Shown here: positions 4,381-57,690 of the stretch, piece after piece
How positions within the stretch are numbered: position 1 is the stretch's first letter
Layout: each line of letters opens with the position of its first letter
From: Octopus sinensis
Taxonomy: Eukaryota
Assembly: GCF_006345805.1 (NCBI RefSeq)
Contig: NC_043024.1
Location: 13,516,001-13,580,000, forward strand
Direction: 5' to 3'
DNA: 64,000 bases
The notes under the pieces: model-generated
The model's database searches: none
Told to the model about the DNA's origin: nothing
The model's input: the letters and a program-made list of their open reading frames with translations, nothing else
Position numbers and translations under genes: made by a program

Positions 4381-4538
4381 TACAAACAACTATATTCGCA
4401 TGTAAACTAGTTACCTGTATATCCTAACCTGTATATCAAAACCACAGTGCCGATGCAGGTTATTTCCGGCGACAGAGAGAATTTGAAAAGTTAGGGTATC
4501 CAGACAGCTAGTTTACATGCGAATCTAGTTGTGTGTAG
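4381..4538. mobile_element. MITE-like element with ~48 bp imperfect terminal inverted repeats
   Basis: tacaaacaactatattcgcatgtaaactagttacctgtatatcctaac (4381-4428) is the near reverse complement of gttagggtatccagacagctagtttacatgcgaatctagttgtgtgta (4490-4538); TA at both ends. Confidence 0.65.
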
Positions 4539-7220: not shown

Positions 7221-7353
7221 ACGTGACGTATTTTTGCCATTGCAATATGGCTAACCCCTAAGGGTGGATGCTACTGTAGTTTTAGCCCCAGGAGGACACA
7301 GTAGCATCCACCCTTAGGGGTTAGCCATATTGAAATGGCAAAAATAGTCACGT
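7220..7353. mobile_element. Fold-back element in (TA)n: ~57 bp arms, 20 nt spacer; related to the element at 55615-55838
   Basis: aacgtgacgtatttttgccattgcaatatggctaacccctaagggtggatgctactgt / acagtagcatccacccttaggggttagccatattgaaatggcaaaaatagtcacgtt; TA tracts on both sides. Confidence 0.75.
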
Positions 7354-7396
7354 TGTGTTACCGCTACTGTATATAACTCACATGATATTTATATAA

Positions 7397-8153: not shown

Positions 8154-8188
<35 letters not shown>

Positions 8189-8299
8189 TCAGTAAATAGT
8201 GGGGTCGTGTTAACCGCACGTGGAGAAATGATAGGAGAGGAAAATGTATAATAAGGCAGAATGCAAAATTGAAAGTAATTTTATATATATATATATAAC

Positions 8300-11036: not shown

Positions 11037-11207
11037 GGGGAGAATTCACGAAAAAAACAAAAGACGAAGACAGGTAGTGTAGAAAACAAACAAATGCATT
11101 AGTATAACTATCAGTCTTTTACATTTCGAGCCTACGCTCTTCTACAGAAATGGACACAGAAAGAAACAAGGAGAGAAATTTAGTGTGTAGTGGCTACCGA
11201 TCTTCAT
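11037..11207 (-). mobile_element. TA-embedded element (putative PLE pLTR remnant), same family as 57311-57506 and 53888-53960
   Basis: Shared aaacaaaagacgaag..aggt.gtgta..aaaca..tgtattagtataac..ttttac.tttcgagcctacgctcttctacagaaa.ggacacagaaa. Confidence 0.75.
11117..11150 (-). ncRNA. Minimal hammerhead-like motif, core variant CUGUAGA
   Basis: Minus strand: uuu-CUGUAGA-a-gagc-guag-gcuc-GAAAU-GUA-aaa. Confidence 0.45.
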
Positions 11208-11277: not shown

Positions 11278-11503
11278 CTTTATTTTAAGCAGCAGAAAAT
11301 TCAACAAAATCTGTTACTCTGAGTTCTCGTTGCCGTTCATCAGACAGTTTTTGCTAGCAAAAACTCTCTGATGAACGGCACGAGAAACTCAGAGTACAGA
11401 TTTTGTTGAATTTTCTGCTGCTTAAATAAAGCATATTACTCTACCACTGGTATTTGAGTACTCTTTTTTCCACCTTGTTTCACATTTATGTGTTTACTCC
11501 GGT
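11278..11503. mobile_element. Palindromic element (zero-spacer axis at 11355/11356) with one-sided tail, in (TA)n; two damaged hammerhead motifs; same family as 39807-40043
   Basis: Arms 11278-11355 and 11356-11431 are reverse complements around tttttgctagcaaaaa. Both arms carry ctgatgaacggca(a)cgaga(a)actcagagta with single-base deletions. Confidence 0.85.
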
Positions 11504-15199: not shown

Positions 15200-15385
15200 G
15201 AGTTGATAGAATCGTTAGCATGCCATGTATAAATACTTAGCGGTCCTCAGTTGATAATCCGCCGAGGTCGACTTAGCGGTTCATCCACTCGCGGTCGATA
15301 AAATAAGTGCCAGCTGATGACTGGGGATGATGTAATCGGCTTATATTTCTTCCGAAATTGCTGGCCTTGTGCCATAATTTTAATC
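15200..15385 (+). mobile_element. Diverged SINE family A copy
   Basis: agaatcgttagc..ccgccgaggtcgactt..ttcatcc..ggtcgataaaataagt..gatgtaatcg..ggccttgtgcc. Confidence 0.75.
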
Positions 15386-15405
15386 CATTATATATATATA
15401 TATAT

Positions 15406-16064
15406 TGGTGGATTCCTCCTTTTCGCCTTCGGCCCAGTGCGTCCATGCTGCCAACAAAGCACGCGGAATTCTGTTTTGATTCGACGGTCATTCGGAATGC
15501 TCACAGCAGCCATATTCCTACCACTCTATGTCACGCTGGTGAGACCCATATTGGAGTATGGGATTCAAGCCTCTTCTCCTTATCTCCTCAAAGACATACA
15601 GCATCTCGAAAGAGTCCAGAAGCTGGCTACCCGCATGGTTCATGGTCTCAAAAATTTGTCCTACGAAGAAAGGCTGAGGACGCTCGACCTTTATTCTCTT
15701 GAAAAACGCCGCCGCCGTGGTGATCTCATTCTCGCCCACACCATCATAAGCGGAAGTGTAACCTCTCGAAAGAGCTGTTCTTCACTCCTGCTCCAGAGCG
15801 TCGGCTGCGGGGTCATTCCGAAAAGCTCTACCTGCGACGATTTCATCTCAATCGAAGGAGAGGAGCTTTCTCCGTCCGGGTTGCGGATCCGTGGAACAAG
15901 CTGCCAGACGAGATGGTGAAGATGCCGACGACCGCTTTGTTCAAAGCCTCCCTTGACCTCAAGTGGCCTGAACTCTTTACATGAACACCACCCTGTACTT
16001 AACTCCATGTCCCCCTACATGGCCTTGCTATTTGCTTTTGAGCCAAATTAACTAACTAACTAAC
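15406..16064 (+). mobile_element. 5'-truncated CR1-clade LINE (ORF2 C-terminus, short 3' UTR, (TAAC)n tail) inserted in (TA)n
   Basis: Across two frameshifts: LVDSSFSPSAQCVHAANKARGILF-IRRSF...LPLYVTLVRPILEYG...KDIQHLERVQKLATRMVHGLKNLSYEERLRTLDLYSLEKRRRRGDLI...LRGHSEKL...FSVRVADPWNKLP...FKASLD, stop at 15982-15984, tail taactaactaactaac. Confidence 0.93.
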
Positions 16065-17116: not shown

Positions 17117-17277
17117 TGTTGGATCTAGTCCCGGATATATTTGTTTCTATACTAACAGTAGCGGTATCAGTCCCCGTATGTGTTACACATAGACAGATAC
17201 AGGTGTATCAAATACCATACAGTATAAATGGTTGATTAATTAAAGTTATAACTGCCTCTAGATGAAGTGCCACATGG

Positions 17278-17653
17278 CAATCATTTATCAGGACAATCCT
17301 CGACCACTCGCTTCACTAATGACGCTCCAGAAGATGTGGGAACCCGGCTACGAAGTTCTTCACTCAGCATACTCACCAGACCTTTTTACTACGAACTACC
17401 ACTCTTTCAAGCACTTTGATGGTTTCCTGCGAGAGAAGAATTTCAAAAATCAAATGGATGCTGAAAGTGCGTTAAAAGAGCTCATCCGTTCCAGAATTCC
17501 AGATTTTCTATGTTACCGGAATACACAGACTTGTAACTTGTAATGTACTGATACTAATGGCACTTACTTTGATGGAAAAATGTCCGAATAGTTGAAATAT
17601 ATTGCGATGAATTTCAGGCTTCAAAATGCTGCTTACTTTTTACTCAGCCTAAT
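17278..17653 (+). mobile_element. Mariner transposon 3' half (transposase C-terminus plus right TIR), defective
   Basis: QDNPRP...GYEVLHSAYSPDLFTTNYHSFKHFDGFL matches mariner HDNARPH...YSPDLxPxDYHxF. The end aaaatgctgcttacttttttactcagcctaa-TA resembles the reverse complement of an Hsmar1-type TIR (TTAGGTTGGTGCAAAAGTAATTGCGG). Confidence 0.9.
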
Positions 17654-37974: not shown

Positions 37975-38019
<45 letters not shown>

Positions 38020-38231
38020 AAATATTAGGGAATAAATCCAAACTTACAGGGAAAAATCAGATTTAGGATTGAATCCAATTTTATAGTAAAATATTATATT
38101 ATATTAAATTAGAGATAAAACCACTATTAGGCAAATCAAACAATGAAAAACTTAAGCCAATACATGAGATTAACTAATTTATATTATTTTAAATATATAT
38201 CAAAATTATTAAAAGAAGATAATTAATATAA

Positions 38232-38294
38232 CACTACGATCGTTTCATGGCTGTCCAATTCGTAAAAATTCGAGTTACAGTCATTCTTCAGGTG
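38232..38294 (-). ncRNA. Minimal type I hammerhead ribozyme (mirror copy)
   Basis: Exact reverse complement of 38355-38417. Confidence 0.75.
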
Positions 38295-38354
38295 ATTGAA
38301 ATATTTCACTTGGCGAGTTCATTGATTAAACCTCGCCAAGTTAAATATTTCAAT

Positions 38355-38417
38355 CACCTGAAGAATGACTGTAACTCGAATTTTTACGAATTGGACAGCC
38401 ATGAAACGATCGTAGTG
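38355..38417 (+). ncRNA. Minimal type I hammerhead ribozyme, predicted cleavage after 38414
   Basis: cac-CUGAAGA-[aug.cugu...acag.cau stem II]-GAAAC-gauc-GUA-gug. Stem I is cac/gug; the stem III region ACGAUCGU is self-complementary. Confidence 0.78.
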
Positions 38418-38707
38418 TTATAATAATTATCTTTTTTTAATAAGTTTGATATATATTTAAAATAATATAAATTAATTAATCTTATGTATTGGCTTAAGTT
38501 TTTCATTGTATGATTTGCCTAATAGTGGTTTTATCTCTAATTTAATATAATACATATAAAAATGTATATAAATTACTGCTTTGGTTACAATTTCGACATA
38601 TATACATTTAGGTATATCAATCTATATATATATCTATATCTATGCATATATATATATATAATATATATATACATATATATATACATACATACATACATAC
38701 ATATATA

Positions 38708-39765: not shown

Positions 39766-39806
<41 letters not shown>

Positions 39807-39810
<4 letters not shown>

Positions 39811-40043
39811 GTAGAGTAATATGCTTTATTTTAAGCAGCAGAAAATTCAACAAAATCTGTTACTCTGAGTTTCTCGTTGCCGTTCATCAGACTAGCAAAA
39901 ACTGTCTGATGAACGGCAACGAGAAACTCAGAGTAACAGATTTTGTTGAATTTTCTGCTGCTTAAAATAAAGCATATTACTCTACCACTGGTATTTGAGT
40001 ACTCTTTTTTTCACCTTGTTTCACATTTATGTGTTTACTCCGG
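39807..40043. mobile_element. Palindromic TA-embedded element with one-sided tail (arms 39807-39892 / 39904-39989); same family as 11278-11503
   Basis: Near-perfect inverted arms; tail ggtatttgagtactc...gtgtttactccggt shared with the 11 kb copy. Confidence 0.88.
39902..39939 (+). ncRNA. Minimal type I hammerhead ribozyme, predicted cleavage after 39935
   Basis: cugu-CUGAUGA-a-cg-gcaa-cg-a-GAAA-cucaga-GUA-acag. Stem I is cugu/acag (extendable aaaa/uuuu); stem II is 2 bp with a GNRA loop; stem III cuc-a-gag is quasi-palindromic. Confidence 0.72.
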
Positions 40044-40065
40044 TATATATATATATATATATATA

Positions 40066-40542
40066 GGAAAAATTGTAAAAATGCAGAATGCTAAATTGAA
40101 AGAAAATTTTAATGAAATGAGAAATTGATAAAATATATAAATATATATTTATTCAAACCGGTTTTCGTTCTGTTTTGCCAACATCCTAAATTAAACTAAA
40201 CAACACATGGCCTTAATCCCATTGGATCGTAATACCTCAAGGTAATTTTTTCGTGAACAATCATTAAACTCAAGATACACAACGAACTCACAATGTATCG
40301 GAGTACTTATTTTTTAATTTTTATACATATTTATTATTATTCTTTTGCCCCTTTCTCATTTTTAAAAAGCTTTTTCACCTAACTATGACGAAAACCGGTC
40401 TGAATAAATATATATTTATATATTTTATCAATTTCTCATTTCATTAAAATTATCTTTCAATTTAGCATTCTGCATTTTTACAATTTTTCTTTGCTTATCA
40501 TTTCTCCATATGCGGTCAACACAACCCCACCATTTATTGATC
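40066..40542. mobile_element. Fold-back element in (TA)n: ~103 bp arms (40066-40168 / 40388-40490), ~220 bp spacer, one-sided tail
   Basis: gaaaaattgtaaaaatgcagaatgctaaattgaaag...attcaaaccggttttcgt versus acgaaaaccggtctgaat...ctttcaatttagcattctgcatttttacaatttttc. Confidence 0.8.
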
Positions 40543-40849
40543 TATATATATATATATATATAACAAAACAAGCATACATACATATACGCATACGCCAACG
40601 TCTATAGTTTTACCTTTAGAAGTTAAGAAGCGACCTTTATTATTTATACACGCACACACACACAATTACGCAAACACAACCACCCTTCTACACACCCACA
40701 CACACACATATATATATATATTTATGTATATATAGGTGTGTATGTGTGTATATATATACGCATATGTGTGCGTATGCTTTTTTAGGTATATATATATTAT
40801 CTGTTATACCCAACCGTCATAATTTCTGTATTTCTTCTACTGCAGACAC

Positions 40850-44781: not shown

Positions 44782-47700
44782 AGTATGTATGTCTGCGTTT
44801 GTGTGTGTGTATGTATATGTCTGAACTGTGTGTATTCACGCACAAATATCACCAACGTATATTTTCTGTCATATTCCAGAGAACCTTCATCTGAAAATTC
44901 AAATTTTTACTTGTTTTCCACGTCGTTTTCCTCCATATTGATAATGTTTTTCTTCCACCGCAGTTAGTTTCACGAATTTTCGATCTGGAATTCTTTTAAA
45001 CCTGTTAAAATGGAAAGTGGAGCATCGTTGAAGAAATAGAACAGATGAGAAATATAATAGAATTAACATTCCGATTCCACAGTTAAACAACTGTCATGAA
45101 CCACTTAACGGCGGGAATTCGATTACATCGTTGGATCTAACTTCTTTTTCTCTTTGAAAGCGATGCCTACGATGCACTCTTTCCGCGTATAAACGGATTC
45201 GTTTGACCTTCTATGATGATACTGACATAAAGTTAGAAGCAGCCTGTTTTGCATGCTAAATCTATATGTCGCGTATATTCTATATTGCGAATTACTCAGA
45301 AGACCATTTATAATTCCGGTTGCCAACGGTTGGTGAGAATGATGCAACGAACAGCTCAGACTGAAGATACTTTGTAAAGGTTATTCGGGGAGGGTAAAAT
45401 GTATCTGTGATCTTCGGTATTTACAAAGTCACTGAGATTATTGCAAGGATGAGTTGGAGATTTACTCAAACCAAGGACCTTTTTCTAGCTCTCTACAAAC
45501 GAATAAAGTCTGTTGAAAAAAATTCCATGCACCATATTTTTCCGTTACATAAAGGTCTTTGCTACTTTTGAAGTATCCGTTGGCGACGACGTGTTCTCCA
45601 CTGAGCGGAACCCATGAACTGTCTATTGTTCTTCAATCCAGTTATATCCCAGCTTTTTCAGCGCTATCTGAATGTTAAATCCCCCTTGCTCAACATTTTG
45701 TGTATTAATTTGCTGCCTGTCATGTCCCCCAGGGAAGACCTGGAGGACATGACAGGCACGCCTATTGATAAATCTGTCAATTTCTTCGTTTTAAAGATTT
45801 ATCAAGGATCATTTTAATCCCTCTTTCAAAACGACGAGCGATCCTATCTTATTAAAACTGTAGGACAAAATGATTAACAAATCTTATATAAATAATGAAC
45901 TTCAAGCATGGTCGCTGGTTATTAATAACAAGGTTAAGTTTATTGACTAGACGCATAGAACTATTAATATGTCTAAAAAGAGACATTGATTTCTTTATTA
46001 GCCACAAGGGCTCGATATAGATAGGGACAAACAAAGACGGACAGGACACCACAGAGGGGACAATACATAGAACGAATATGATTGCGATGATTATATAACA
46101 ATGGGGTTATGAATGGCTGCATGCGCCCCTCATCACATGCCTTACCATTAATCTTTTTAAAATGTCCGTTTTTATCATATATTTACAAAATTAATTATCG
46201 TCTACAATTACGAGTATTTGAACCGTTATATACGTTCTCTAAAATTGTTGTATTTTTCATTATTTTTAAACATAACATAAAACACTCTATTTTTTCCTTT
46301 TTTTCCTCCTTTTTCTTTTATATTTTCTTTTTTTCCTGTCAATTTAACATACTTATTTACTTTTTAGTAATATTTCATTAGTGGTTCATTTTCTACTAAA
46401 TCCACTACTGGTGGCAATTCTTTGAATTCCACCCTTACTCCTCGTGGGTCAATATCATCTCCACACATTTCTTTCAGTCTCTTGTAATTTTCCTCTTCGA
46501 TCACTATCGCCCCTTCATATCCTCTGCATATATGTAAATTGTATAATATGCCTCAGAGAAGTGCTGAGGAATTGTTATTTCCTGTACGCCCTGAAGGATC
46601 TTCGGTATAATCTATCGAAATACCATCTACAGAATACAACGAATACAAGGAATGTTTCTTTGGAAGAATTACTGTTTCTTTGTCTATATCAGAGGTTCTT
46701 AAATGTTATTTTTTTCATTTTGTAGTGCCCCATTTTCAGGAGTCGTGGTACTTCGCTCGCCATATAAGTAGTTAGTGCGGAATTACCACTAAACAAACGT
46801 ATGTTGGATGATAATTCATAACTTTTACTCAAATGACAACGCAACTAGAAAATACTAATCAAGACAAAACTATAAAATGAAATATTTATTATTCTTGTTC
46901 GACCACGTCTGTATCTGCGATATATAAATACCTCTCATTTCATTTTGATAATTCTTAATAGTTTTATCATTAATTAGTAGTATAGGTAAAATTTAATACC
47001 GTCCCGAATGACTGAAGCCGATTTGGAGCAGTGCCTGCCACGTTGAAGAATTCTGGTCTAGAGAAACTACAGATGGATTCGTTATGCTTGACATCCCCGG
47101 TATGGTAGCCAAAGTCTCTTAAATCACACCTAGTCGTCTTTTTGCTTAGAAGCATAGAGACATATTTTGCTTCAAAGGACGAACATTTGATAGCTAGAAT
47201 AGCTCAGATCATAGGTCTGTTCGAATCGGGAAGGCTGTGTCAAAACAACAATAAAGGTAACTTCTAAGTAAATATTTATTTCGTATAACTGCTGATGAAA
47301 CCTGGTTTGGGCAATAAGAATCAATAGTAATGAGATACAATCTTTTAGCAGATTAGTCTCACGCATGAAGTATGGTGAATAAATACACTTTATAAACAGA
47401 CGGGATATACACACACGTAGTTGATTATTTATGTTGGACAGGGTGTGAAGAAATAAGTGCTGAATTTCGGATGGGTTAGAGTTAATATCAGACAGGTGTT
47501 AAAAAATCCGAACAACTGAACATCTAAATTGACTGTGTTGCATTATATAACAAGAGCGTACAACAGCTCGTAATGTTGCCAGAGTAAAGCTTTAAAACCT
47601 TCAACGTTGTTAACAAGTTGAGATTGTTAGAAATGAAGAAAATGATATTACAGACAAGTTTGACATAAATTAATCACAATACAGCAAACAAACGTGGCGT

Positions 47701-55615: not shown

Positions 55616-55838
55616 CGACACTCTACAGAAACTGTAGTCCGCGCGTATCACTTAGGTTGACGAGGGAAGGATCACCTCCCTTTGCAAATACCCGGTAGGG
55701 CCACAGAAAGTTTGTCAATAGCCAGCTGGAGGAGATGTTTCTCCTGAGGCTACAATCTCCAGTAACATCCACCCTTAGGGGTTAGCTATATTAGGATGGC
55801 AAAATATACTTCACATTGTCGCGCAGTTACTGTCTATA
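55615..55838. mobile_element. TA-embedded element related to the 7220-7353 fold-back
   Basis: cagtaacatccacccttaggggttagctatatt...atggcaaaa..cac.ttgt..tactgt shared with 7299-7372. Confidence 0.7.
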
Positions 55839-57310: not shown

Positions 57311-57506
57311 TAAACAAAAGACGAAGGCAGGTGGTGTACAAATAAACAGATGTATTAGTATAACGCTCAGGAATAGAAAACGTCTTTTACGTTTCGAGCC
57401 TACGCTCTTCTACAGAAAGGGACACAGAAAAAAACAAGGTGAGAAACAAGGAGAGAAAAACAATGTGTGTAGTGGCTAACGATTTATCATGGCGTCTGAC
57501 TCGGAC
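57311..57506 (-). mobile_element. Microsatellite-embedded putative PLE pLTR remnant, same family as 11037-11207
   Basis: Long shared sequence with the 11 kb copy; between (TG)n and (TA)n. Confidence 0.78.
57384..57419 (-). ncRNA. Minimal hammerhead-like motif with CUGUAGA core variant
   Basis: cuuu-CUGUAGA-a-gagc-guag-gcuc-GAAAC-GUA-aaag. Stem I is cuuu/aaag, stem II gagc/gcuc, stem III the loopless palindrome ACGU. Confidence 0.55.
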
Positions 57507-57519
57507 ATATATATATATA

Positions 57520-57690
57520 GTGCTTGATCAAAAGTACAGTACTGCATTTATTTACTAACCTAATCTTAGTGCTAGTCCTTACAGACAATCGGTTTCATCA
57601 GCCCGAAGTTCCCCGACTGTAGTCCATAGTGCCGAGTTATGAGTGTATAGCTTACTAAATAAACACAATACTATACTTTTAATCAAGCAC
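57520..57690. mobile_element. Short element with ~39 bp imperfect inverted termini in TA-rich sequence
   Basis: gtgcttgatcaaaagtacagtactgcatttatttactaa / ttactaaataaacacaatactatacttttaatcaagcac. Confidence 0.7.

Follow-up and report, generated by a model that had tools for sequence, protein, structure and literature searches.

The locus examined here lies in a 64,000-nucleotide stretch of octopus DNA (the window), AT-rich, microsatellite-rich eukaryotic sequence in which two short copies of a single repeat end are arranged head to head within a TA microsatellite (copy 1). A related insertion occupies positions 11278-11503 (copy 2), and no third copy was detected within the 64-kb window. The two insertions comprise the following features:

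39769..39807, no strand: (TA)n target, left side; position 39807 is assignable to either target or element
39807..39892, minus strand: inverted left arm of copy 1, the reverse complement of 39904-39989 at 86/86 positions
39893..39903, plus strand: 11-nt spacer of copy 1, the 5' part of the right arm, containing most of the 5' strand of helix I
39893..39948, plus strand: type I hammerhead motif with extended helix I and a predicted cut site
39906-39912, plus strand: hammerhead core CUGAUGA (sequence)
39913..39922, plus strand: 10-nt helix II region, 2 bp and a GCAA loop between the unpaired A39913 and the polymorphic 39922
39923-39926, plus strand: hammerhead core GAAA (sequence)
39926..39934, plus strand: near-palindromic helix III, 4+1+4, predicted to form between two molecules in short constructs
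39978..40001, plus strand: predicted bulged 3' hairpin (-5.9 kcal/mol), starting 44 nt past the cut site
39990..40043, plus strand: one-sided 54-nt tail, ending at a long 3' end 108 nt past the cut site that is common to copies 1 and 2
40044..40065, no strand: (TA)n target, right side, which also flanks an adjoining inverted element of another family
11278..11355, minus strand: left arm of copy 2, ending at a recurrent short end (mirror 39972), with GAAA one base short
11354..11503, plus strand: right arm of copy 2, from the CTAG axis to the long end, with a tail of 71 nt past the end of the left arm

The 38-nt hammerhead string falls at exactly 39902-39939 on the plus strand, and its predicted cut after 39935 and its 2-bp, GCAA-capped stem II are likewise exactly where the original prediction had placed them. 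The string has the CUGANGA core, the GAAA, the UH, and the three helices of a type I hammerhead. A strict type I descriptor matches the window once and gives no match in 100 order-2 Markov simulations, a result that shows only the rarity of such a site, the descriptor having been written with the motif in view. The Rfam hammerhead models produced no match at E-values up to 10, and they also missed a textbook minimal motif at 57415. Helix I comprises 12 pairs around one mismatch (39893-39905 with 39936-39948), and the motif spans about 56 nt. The hammerhead had been called ultra-compact, which is an overstatement because helix I reaches 12 pairs and the published minimal motifs of Penelope-like elements (PLEs) measure 33-35 nt (Cervera and de la Pena, Fig. 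S3; counted by eye); what stands is that helix II, at 10 nt, is short. Overall, the motif is not smaller than the 33-35-nt Caenorhabditis motifs (by-eye counts), and, as judged from sequence comparison, it counts as short only beside the members of its own clade, from which it differs by one helix II pair. According to Perreault et al. 2011, hammerheads commonly have a stem II of just two base pairs, and a U.U mismatch may open it.

In the left arm of copy 1, the hammerhead core is retained with a helix I of only 2 bp, and the outer end of this arm (mirror 39989) is located in the 3' hairpin loop. After the core, copy 1 has a frame of only 18 codons, as expected for a motif located in a 3' UTR. 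In the family consensus, the last four letters of the element (40041-40044) are found again about 10 nt before CTAG, either by chance or as what is left of a small circle; a circular unit of about 159 nt, which this 4-nt repeat at both ends would suggest, was rejected given that none of the joints listed for set B (see below) supports it.

Copy 2 is 93% identical to copy 1 and has the same tail, a shorter left arm, and small deletions, as noted previously, but the palindrome axis, thought to be shared, differs: copy 2 is a perfect palindrome centered on CTAG (11354-11357), whereas at this CTAG copy 1 is without 9 nt of the left arm and has the 11-nt spacer instead. The right arm of copy 2 differs from that of copy 1 by one substitution and three single-A losses, and its hammerhead is broken; altogether, the hammerheads in both arms of copy 2 are disrupted by four losses of a single base, each within an A run and including one in GAAA and another at the cut site, as well as by the helix I substitution. 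These A-run losses are absent from the variants listed for the contigs of eight public runs and may represent either decay or read error.

Both copies (2/2) sit in (TA)n, where a target-site duplication cannot be read. The palindromic body, the TA on both sides, and the high copy number (see below) are features that a DNA transposon derivative, either a MITE or a foldback element with TA target duplications, would display as well. The termini, however, are not inverted repeats (7/20 terminal matches in both copies), the tail is one-sided, the left ends differ between the copies, the inversion axes vary, and a Hydra-type hammerhead is present. A MITE, for which fixed symmetric termini would be expected, is refuted by this asymmetry, and we regard any origin of this kind as extremely improbable. 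The asymmetric ends and the one-sided tail agree with the original proposal of a reverse-transcription type of insertion.

The stretch is represented in 21 of the 24 listed public-run rows, from 11 studies with at least six organism labels; none of these rows is registered as RNA, and runs X10 and X20 are only presumed to be. We compared contigs from 8 of the 24 runs (set A: 10,684, 2,826, 3,537, and 5,148 contigs; set B: 1,420, 1,596, 503, and 1), and with thousands of contigs, the repeat is a high-copy family, the summed contig depth giving no copy number. No core position appears among the listed variants of the eight runs (cut-off of 3% in set A and 2% in set B), so that the core is kept in the family as anticipated, but most of the sites outside the core are likewise unlisted, and the result is not a sign of selection. 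Position 39922 is G in 15-42% of contig depth in seven of the eight runs and T in 8-19% in only the four runs of set A. Because this position is polymorphic, the A.A pair next to the core, of which 39922 is one partner, is not conserved.

In all eight runs, the contigs continue upstream of 39892, agreeing for about 8-10 nt before becoming mixed or TA-like, such that at least 8-10 nt of family sequence upstream of 39892 are missing from copy 1; beyond about 10 nt, agreement falls to 0.50-0.58 (six runs without an RNA label). On the 3' side, loose ends behind 39977 that lead into TA repeats are listed in six of the eight runs, with a matching letter change at 39973 in set A. The left arm of copy 2 ends at this recurrent site (39972-39977). 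The original prediction attributed the different lengths of the left arm to variable truncation, but the outer end of this arm is the 3' side of the element, and because the outer end of copy 2 is recurrent, the truncation is not random. The outer end of copy 1 (39989) is not among the loose ends listed. Further listed loose ends, behind 40047-40050, lead mostly into microsatellite-like sequence (set B). A loose end behind 40040 was seen in two contigs, with an agreement of 0.57. The sole contig of run X20, at low depth, is 161 nt long and consists of 39892-40044 with one difference plus eight upstream letters.

The junctions between the arms bear on how the head-to-head pair arises. In set A, 76 joints were found, of which the 15 best supported are listed; one opposite-strand row was left out of the counts, and the remaining 14 of the 15 connect the left arm to the right arm at near-mirror positions (offsets -40 to +9), with axes spread over mirror positions 39916-39977. 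Six of the 14 listed joints occur in two or more runs, and one in all four runs, from three studies. These joints were read on short contigs, whose shorter side has 18-29 letters, at a likeness of 85%, and were ranked by support. Mean microhomology at the 14 listed joints is 2.2 nt compared to 0.75 nt expected for all possible joints (P about 2e-5), although a later central deletion would also use microhomology and shift the axes.

The recurrence of such joints in independent runs, including the one in all four runs of three studies, together with the presence in the window of several such palindromes with unequal arms, makes it scarcely credible that the palindrome is a sequencing or assembly artefact (a fold-back chimera). 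It is nevertheless the case that the arms of copy 1 are 100% identical, that the four deletions of copy 2 all shorten A runs, as read errors would, and are unlisted in the read tables, and that no listed contig spans the whole stretch.

Given the many axes with microhomology at the joints, the hairpin is likely to form anew at each insertion rather than to be copied whole. The original prediction held that the fold-back form itself is the copied unit, and a fold-back RNA with a fixed axis could in principle serve as template, the left arm being shortened by 5' truncation and the axes drifting by central deletion. The window copies would be compatible with this scheme in that their right arms begin at the same CTAG and the differences between them are a central gap of 9 nt and the length of the left arm; a minority letter at 39964 is present in both arms of copy 1 and the left arm of copy 2; and the microhomology at the joints fits deletion too. 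Across the family, however, the listed joints would require central losses of 44-117 nt at 14 different places, the recurrent outer end of copy 2 matches Hydra 3' ends, inverted arms are a described by-product of PLE insertion, and the transcript of the whole fold-back is predicted to form an 86-bp duplex (-158 kcal/mol) in which the ribozyme is hidden. As a family-wide scheme, a fold-back template is accordingly very unlikely; from their sequences, the two window copies, with their common right-arm start, may form a small subfamily with a fold-back master.

We are highly confident that these insertions are of the Penelope type in the wide sense. An inverted, 5'-truncated copy with a one-sided tail of 30-40 bp is the described anatomy of PLE insertion; the inverted arm and the one-sided tail are shared by the octopus copies, the tails measuring 54 and 71 nt versus the 30-40 bp described. 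The Penelope insertions of Adineta vaga (PMC3846280) and the Poseidon element PAc (PMC11167929) share with the octopus copies the head-to-head inversion, the junction palindrome, the shorter inverted arm, the one-sided tail, the AT-rich target, and a start of copying in a stem-loop. These elements belong to the Penelope/Poseidon clade, and the PAc hammerhead is located at the start of the ORF, in contrast to the 3' UTR-like setting here. In the purified Poseidon system, the tail is explained by reverse transcription that starts at two internal sites (PMC11167929).

Within the PLEs, the hammerhead, the target, the ends, and the hairpin resemble those of the Hydra clade, as described by Craig et al. 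2021 (PMC8557442) and tabulated in File S2 of that article. Outside helix II, 27 of 28 positions agree by eye with the hammerhead of Hydra-2_aMil, which shares helix I, the core, the cut base, and both arms of helix III; Penelope-3_HM, also compared by eye, has an identical helix III. The helix II region, by contrast, has 12 nt or more in all 25 tabulated Hydra families versus 10 nt (2 bp) here. The unpaired first position of helix II is usual for the clade, a mismatch being found there in 15 of the 25 families (14 U.U and 1 U.C). Almost all Hydra families insert in (TA)n, the target of both window copies, and an inverted 5'-truncated copy is noted in Penelope-13_HM. Three of the six new Hydra consensi end 36-47 nt past the cut and the other three at 88-116 nt, and the latter carry a bulged hairpin that starts 39-48 nt past the cut (by eye); the octopus family has both types of end, at 37-42 and 108 nt past the cut, with the hairpin start at 44 nt. 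Hydra-1_Obim, which is listed from Octopus bimaculoides, has a motif different from that of copy 1, and a search of the accessible part of the supplement for the tail motif yielded no match. The 10-nt loop 2 of Penelope-2_NV (File S2) has nine of the ten letters of 39913-39922; judging from sequence alone, the short helix II may be a loop left after loss of the outer stem, or else the likeness may be due to chance.

By its hammerhead, target, ends, and hairpin, the repeat is probably the 3' end of a Hydra-clade element, and our preferred explanation, which we hold to be fairly probable, is that it represents the 5'-truncated 3' end of a Hydra-clade Penelope-like retrotransposon with a protein-coding master. 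The protein hallmark of the clade is a single ORF that combines a reverse transcriptase with a C-terminal GIY-YIG domain lacking CCHH, and that carries a CxCX5C linker and a DKT motif. No reverse transcriptase or endonuclease ORF is present at the locus or was retrieved from the scanned collections, and a six-frame motif scan revealed no convincing remnant of a PLE protein. Exact-motif scans returned 0 and 0 matches in viral contigs, 0 and 0 in prokaryote genomes, and 0 and then 3 loci in metagenomes; the three metagenome loci match over only 20-30 nt, were taken as chance, and were dismissed as family copies. We also considered the upstream bases as the end of an ORF, with the core supplying a double stop, and discarded this option given that Hydra ORFs end well upstream of the motif; short peptide searches for an ORF end in the accessible part of the Craig supplement (PMC8557442) produced nothing relevant. 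We found no printed description of this family in the literature, the repeat libraries Repbase and Dfam lying outside the search.

Under the preferred explanation, the GIY-YIG endonuclease of the element would nick (TA)n, and reverse transcription of one kind of RNA would begin from two priming sites, one being the long 3' end (40043) and the other internal, at either the ATAT stretch at 39972-39977 or the hairpin loop at 39989. Both cDNAs would then terminate early, and a short microhomology (CTAG in copy 2) would serve to join their truncated ends; alternatively, one cDNA might fold back and prime the other. Twin priming and self-priming are both compatible with the present data. The hammerhead would be a passenger from the 3' UTR of the element, predicted to need two molecules for helix III. 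The layout with two arms and one tail also occurs in at least two unrelated families of the window.

The Hydra-3'-end reading is weakened by the missing ORF, by tails longer than those described, by the common CTAG start of both right arms, and by the upstream consensus, because the mixed upstream sequence (agreement 0.50-0.58) does not obviously come from a uniform long master. The same insertion mechanism could operate on a short non-coding master of about 160 nt or more, that is, a solo pLTR or a small retrozyme that uses a Hydra-type enzyme in trans. In accord with such a master, the consensus upstream stays clear over only about 8-10 nt before giving way to TA-like or mixed sequence in most runs, both window copies start at the same CTAG, and the X20 contig covers almost exactly the right-arm unit; moreover, mobilization of pLTRs in trans is described, and retrozymes have been proposed to derive from pLTRs. 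Against it, no end-to-start joint is listed among the roughly 3,500 contigs of the four runs of set B, although contigs cannot prove the absence of tandem units elsewhere in the genome; no tandem units occur within the 64-kb window; and published retrozyme monomers are about 225-350 nt long, tandem, and equipped with canonical motifs. Furthermore, in the Craig supplement, the hammerhead of Hydra-2_Amil is, by eye, immediately preceded by a TA run and a 10-nt stretch of similar sequence, so that the mixed upstream reads may be element sequence. Metazoan non-LTR retrozymes (PMC7229834; bioRxiv 10.64898/2026.07.22.740005) share with the octopus repeat a non-coding locus, a type I hammerhead, and a proposed link to a PLE enzyme, but form tandem units, none of which are seen here, whereas the octopus unit is shorter and its motif is not the canonical one with 6 bp and 4 bp. 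On balance, we consider a non-coding master unlikely, albeit clearly less so than the fold-back template.

Fold prediction gives a helix II pair probability of about 0.8, whereas helix III is absent from the predicted monomer (pair probability about 0), in which the hammerhead fold lies 4.7 kcal/mol above the predicted minimum. The monomer fold is unremarkable, with z-scores of 0.37 (38 nt) and -1.9 (58 nt). For two molecules, the predicted minimum is the exact double hammerhead in three of six constructs, the three shortest, and this fold is lost in the three longest. From these models, a dimer requirement for helix III, and hence for the ribozyme, appears plausible. The PLE hammerheads shown by Cervera and de la Pena (Fig. 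S3) are likewise of type I, with a palindromic helix III and a predicted dimer requirement, and many are dispersed as single or opposite-strand copies, as in the octopus family; their conserved G10.1-C11.1 pair is missing here, and helix II has 2 bp versus 3 bp or more. The published metazoan PLE motifs show weak cleavage as dimers. Because transcription of the entire insertion is predicted to yield the 86-bp duplex, copy 1 itself is unlikely to be a working ribozyme.

A further, quite unlikely scenario is that the ribozyme, whose helix II would be the shortest seen for the Hydra clade, cleaves its RNA in vivo, and that the cut sets both the run-off of the cDNA and the closure of the hairpin. 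In 10 of the 14 listed joints, the right arm starts between 39933 and 39946, which is at the predicted cut (39935/39936) or slightly beyond it, and in 9 of the 14, both ends are at or beyond 39933. The scan-statistic P value of 0.013 was obtained with a uniform null that takes no account of the increase in copies toward the 3' end, of detection limits, or of the choice of the 15 best supported among 76 joints. No sites where many molecules begin or end are listed in the contigs of the eight runs, and both window copies span the predicted cut site uncut, which counts against a cleavage footprint. An accumulation of joints at the site of cleavage would be telling because Poseidon insertion in vitro needs no cleavage (PMC11167929): that article reports that the PAc hammerhead motif needs protein, is dispensable for insertion in vitro, and that no reads ended at the cut site. 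If the scenario holds, the joints would be a footprint, left in the genome, of hammerhead cleavage during Penelope-type transposition.

A hammerhead-bearing, two-armed Penelope-type end is already known in kind, and the family itself is an addition: a high-copy Penelope-like family with at least six organism labels and a helix II one base pair shorter than in the tabulated relatives. With thousands of insertions, two start sites, and variable axes, it could serve to separate twin priming from self-priming, and the same dataset could show whether hammerhead cleavage shapes the insertions.

The window contains several other repeats. At 38016-38552, a head-to-head palindrome beside (TA)n has 221-bp arms and about 80 extra nt on the left only, each arm with a hammerhead-like motif (38358 on the plus strand, 38291 on the minus strand) that has a long helix II and a perfect 8-nt palindromic helix III. 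A third inverted family, at 40066-40543, shares the right-hand TA run of copy 1 and has a second copy at 8183-8290; it consists of a short left arm, a spacer of about 200 nt, a right arm, and a tail of about 54 nt, the end of which recurs at 8183. It includes, near 40381-40400, a degenerate stretch reminiscent of the core and, near 40180-40215, a broken frame that resembles a GIY-YIG C-terminus. The textbook minimal PLE hammerhead at 57415 (minus strand) has an extra base, a 4-bp helix II, and a CG helix III, and a related copy lies at 11052-11178, just left of the TA run of copy 2. A palindromic repeat at 7230-7356, with 58-bp arms and located beside (TA)n, has a second, differently truncated copy at 55741-55819, and the type I descriptor detects no hammerhead core in either. 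More imperfect inverted repeats outside microsatellites occur at 4381-4537, 45714-45758, and 57520-57690. Elsewhere in the window, the reading frame 15302-15919 resembles the C-terminus of a CR1/L2-type LINE, and the frame 17262-17543 resembles a fragment of a mariner transposase.
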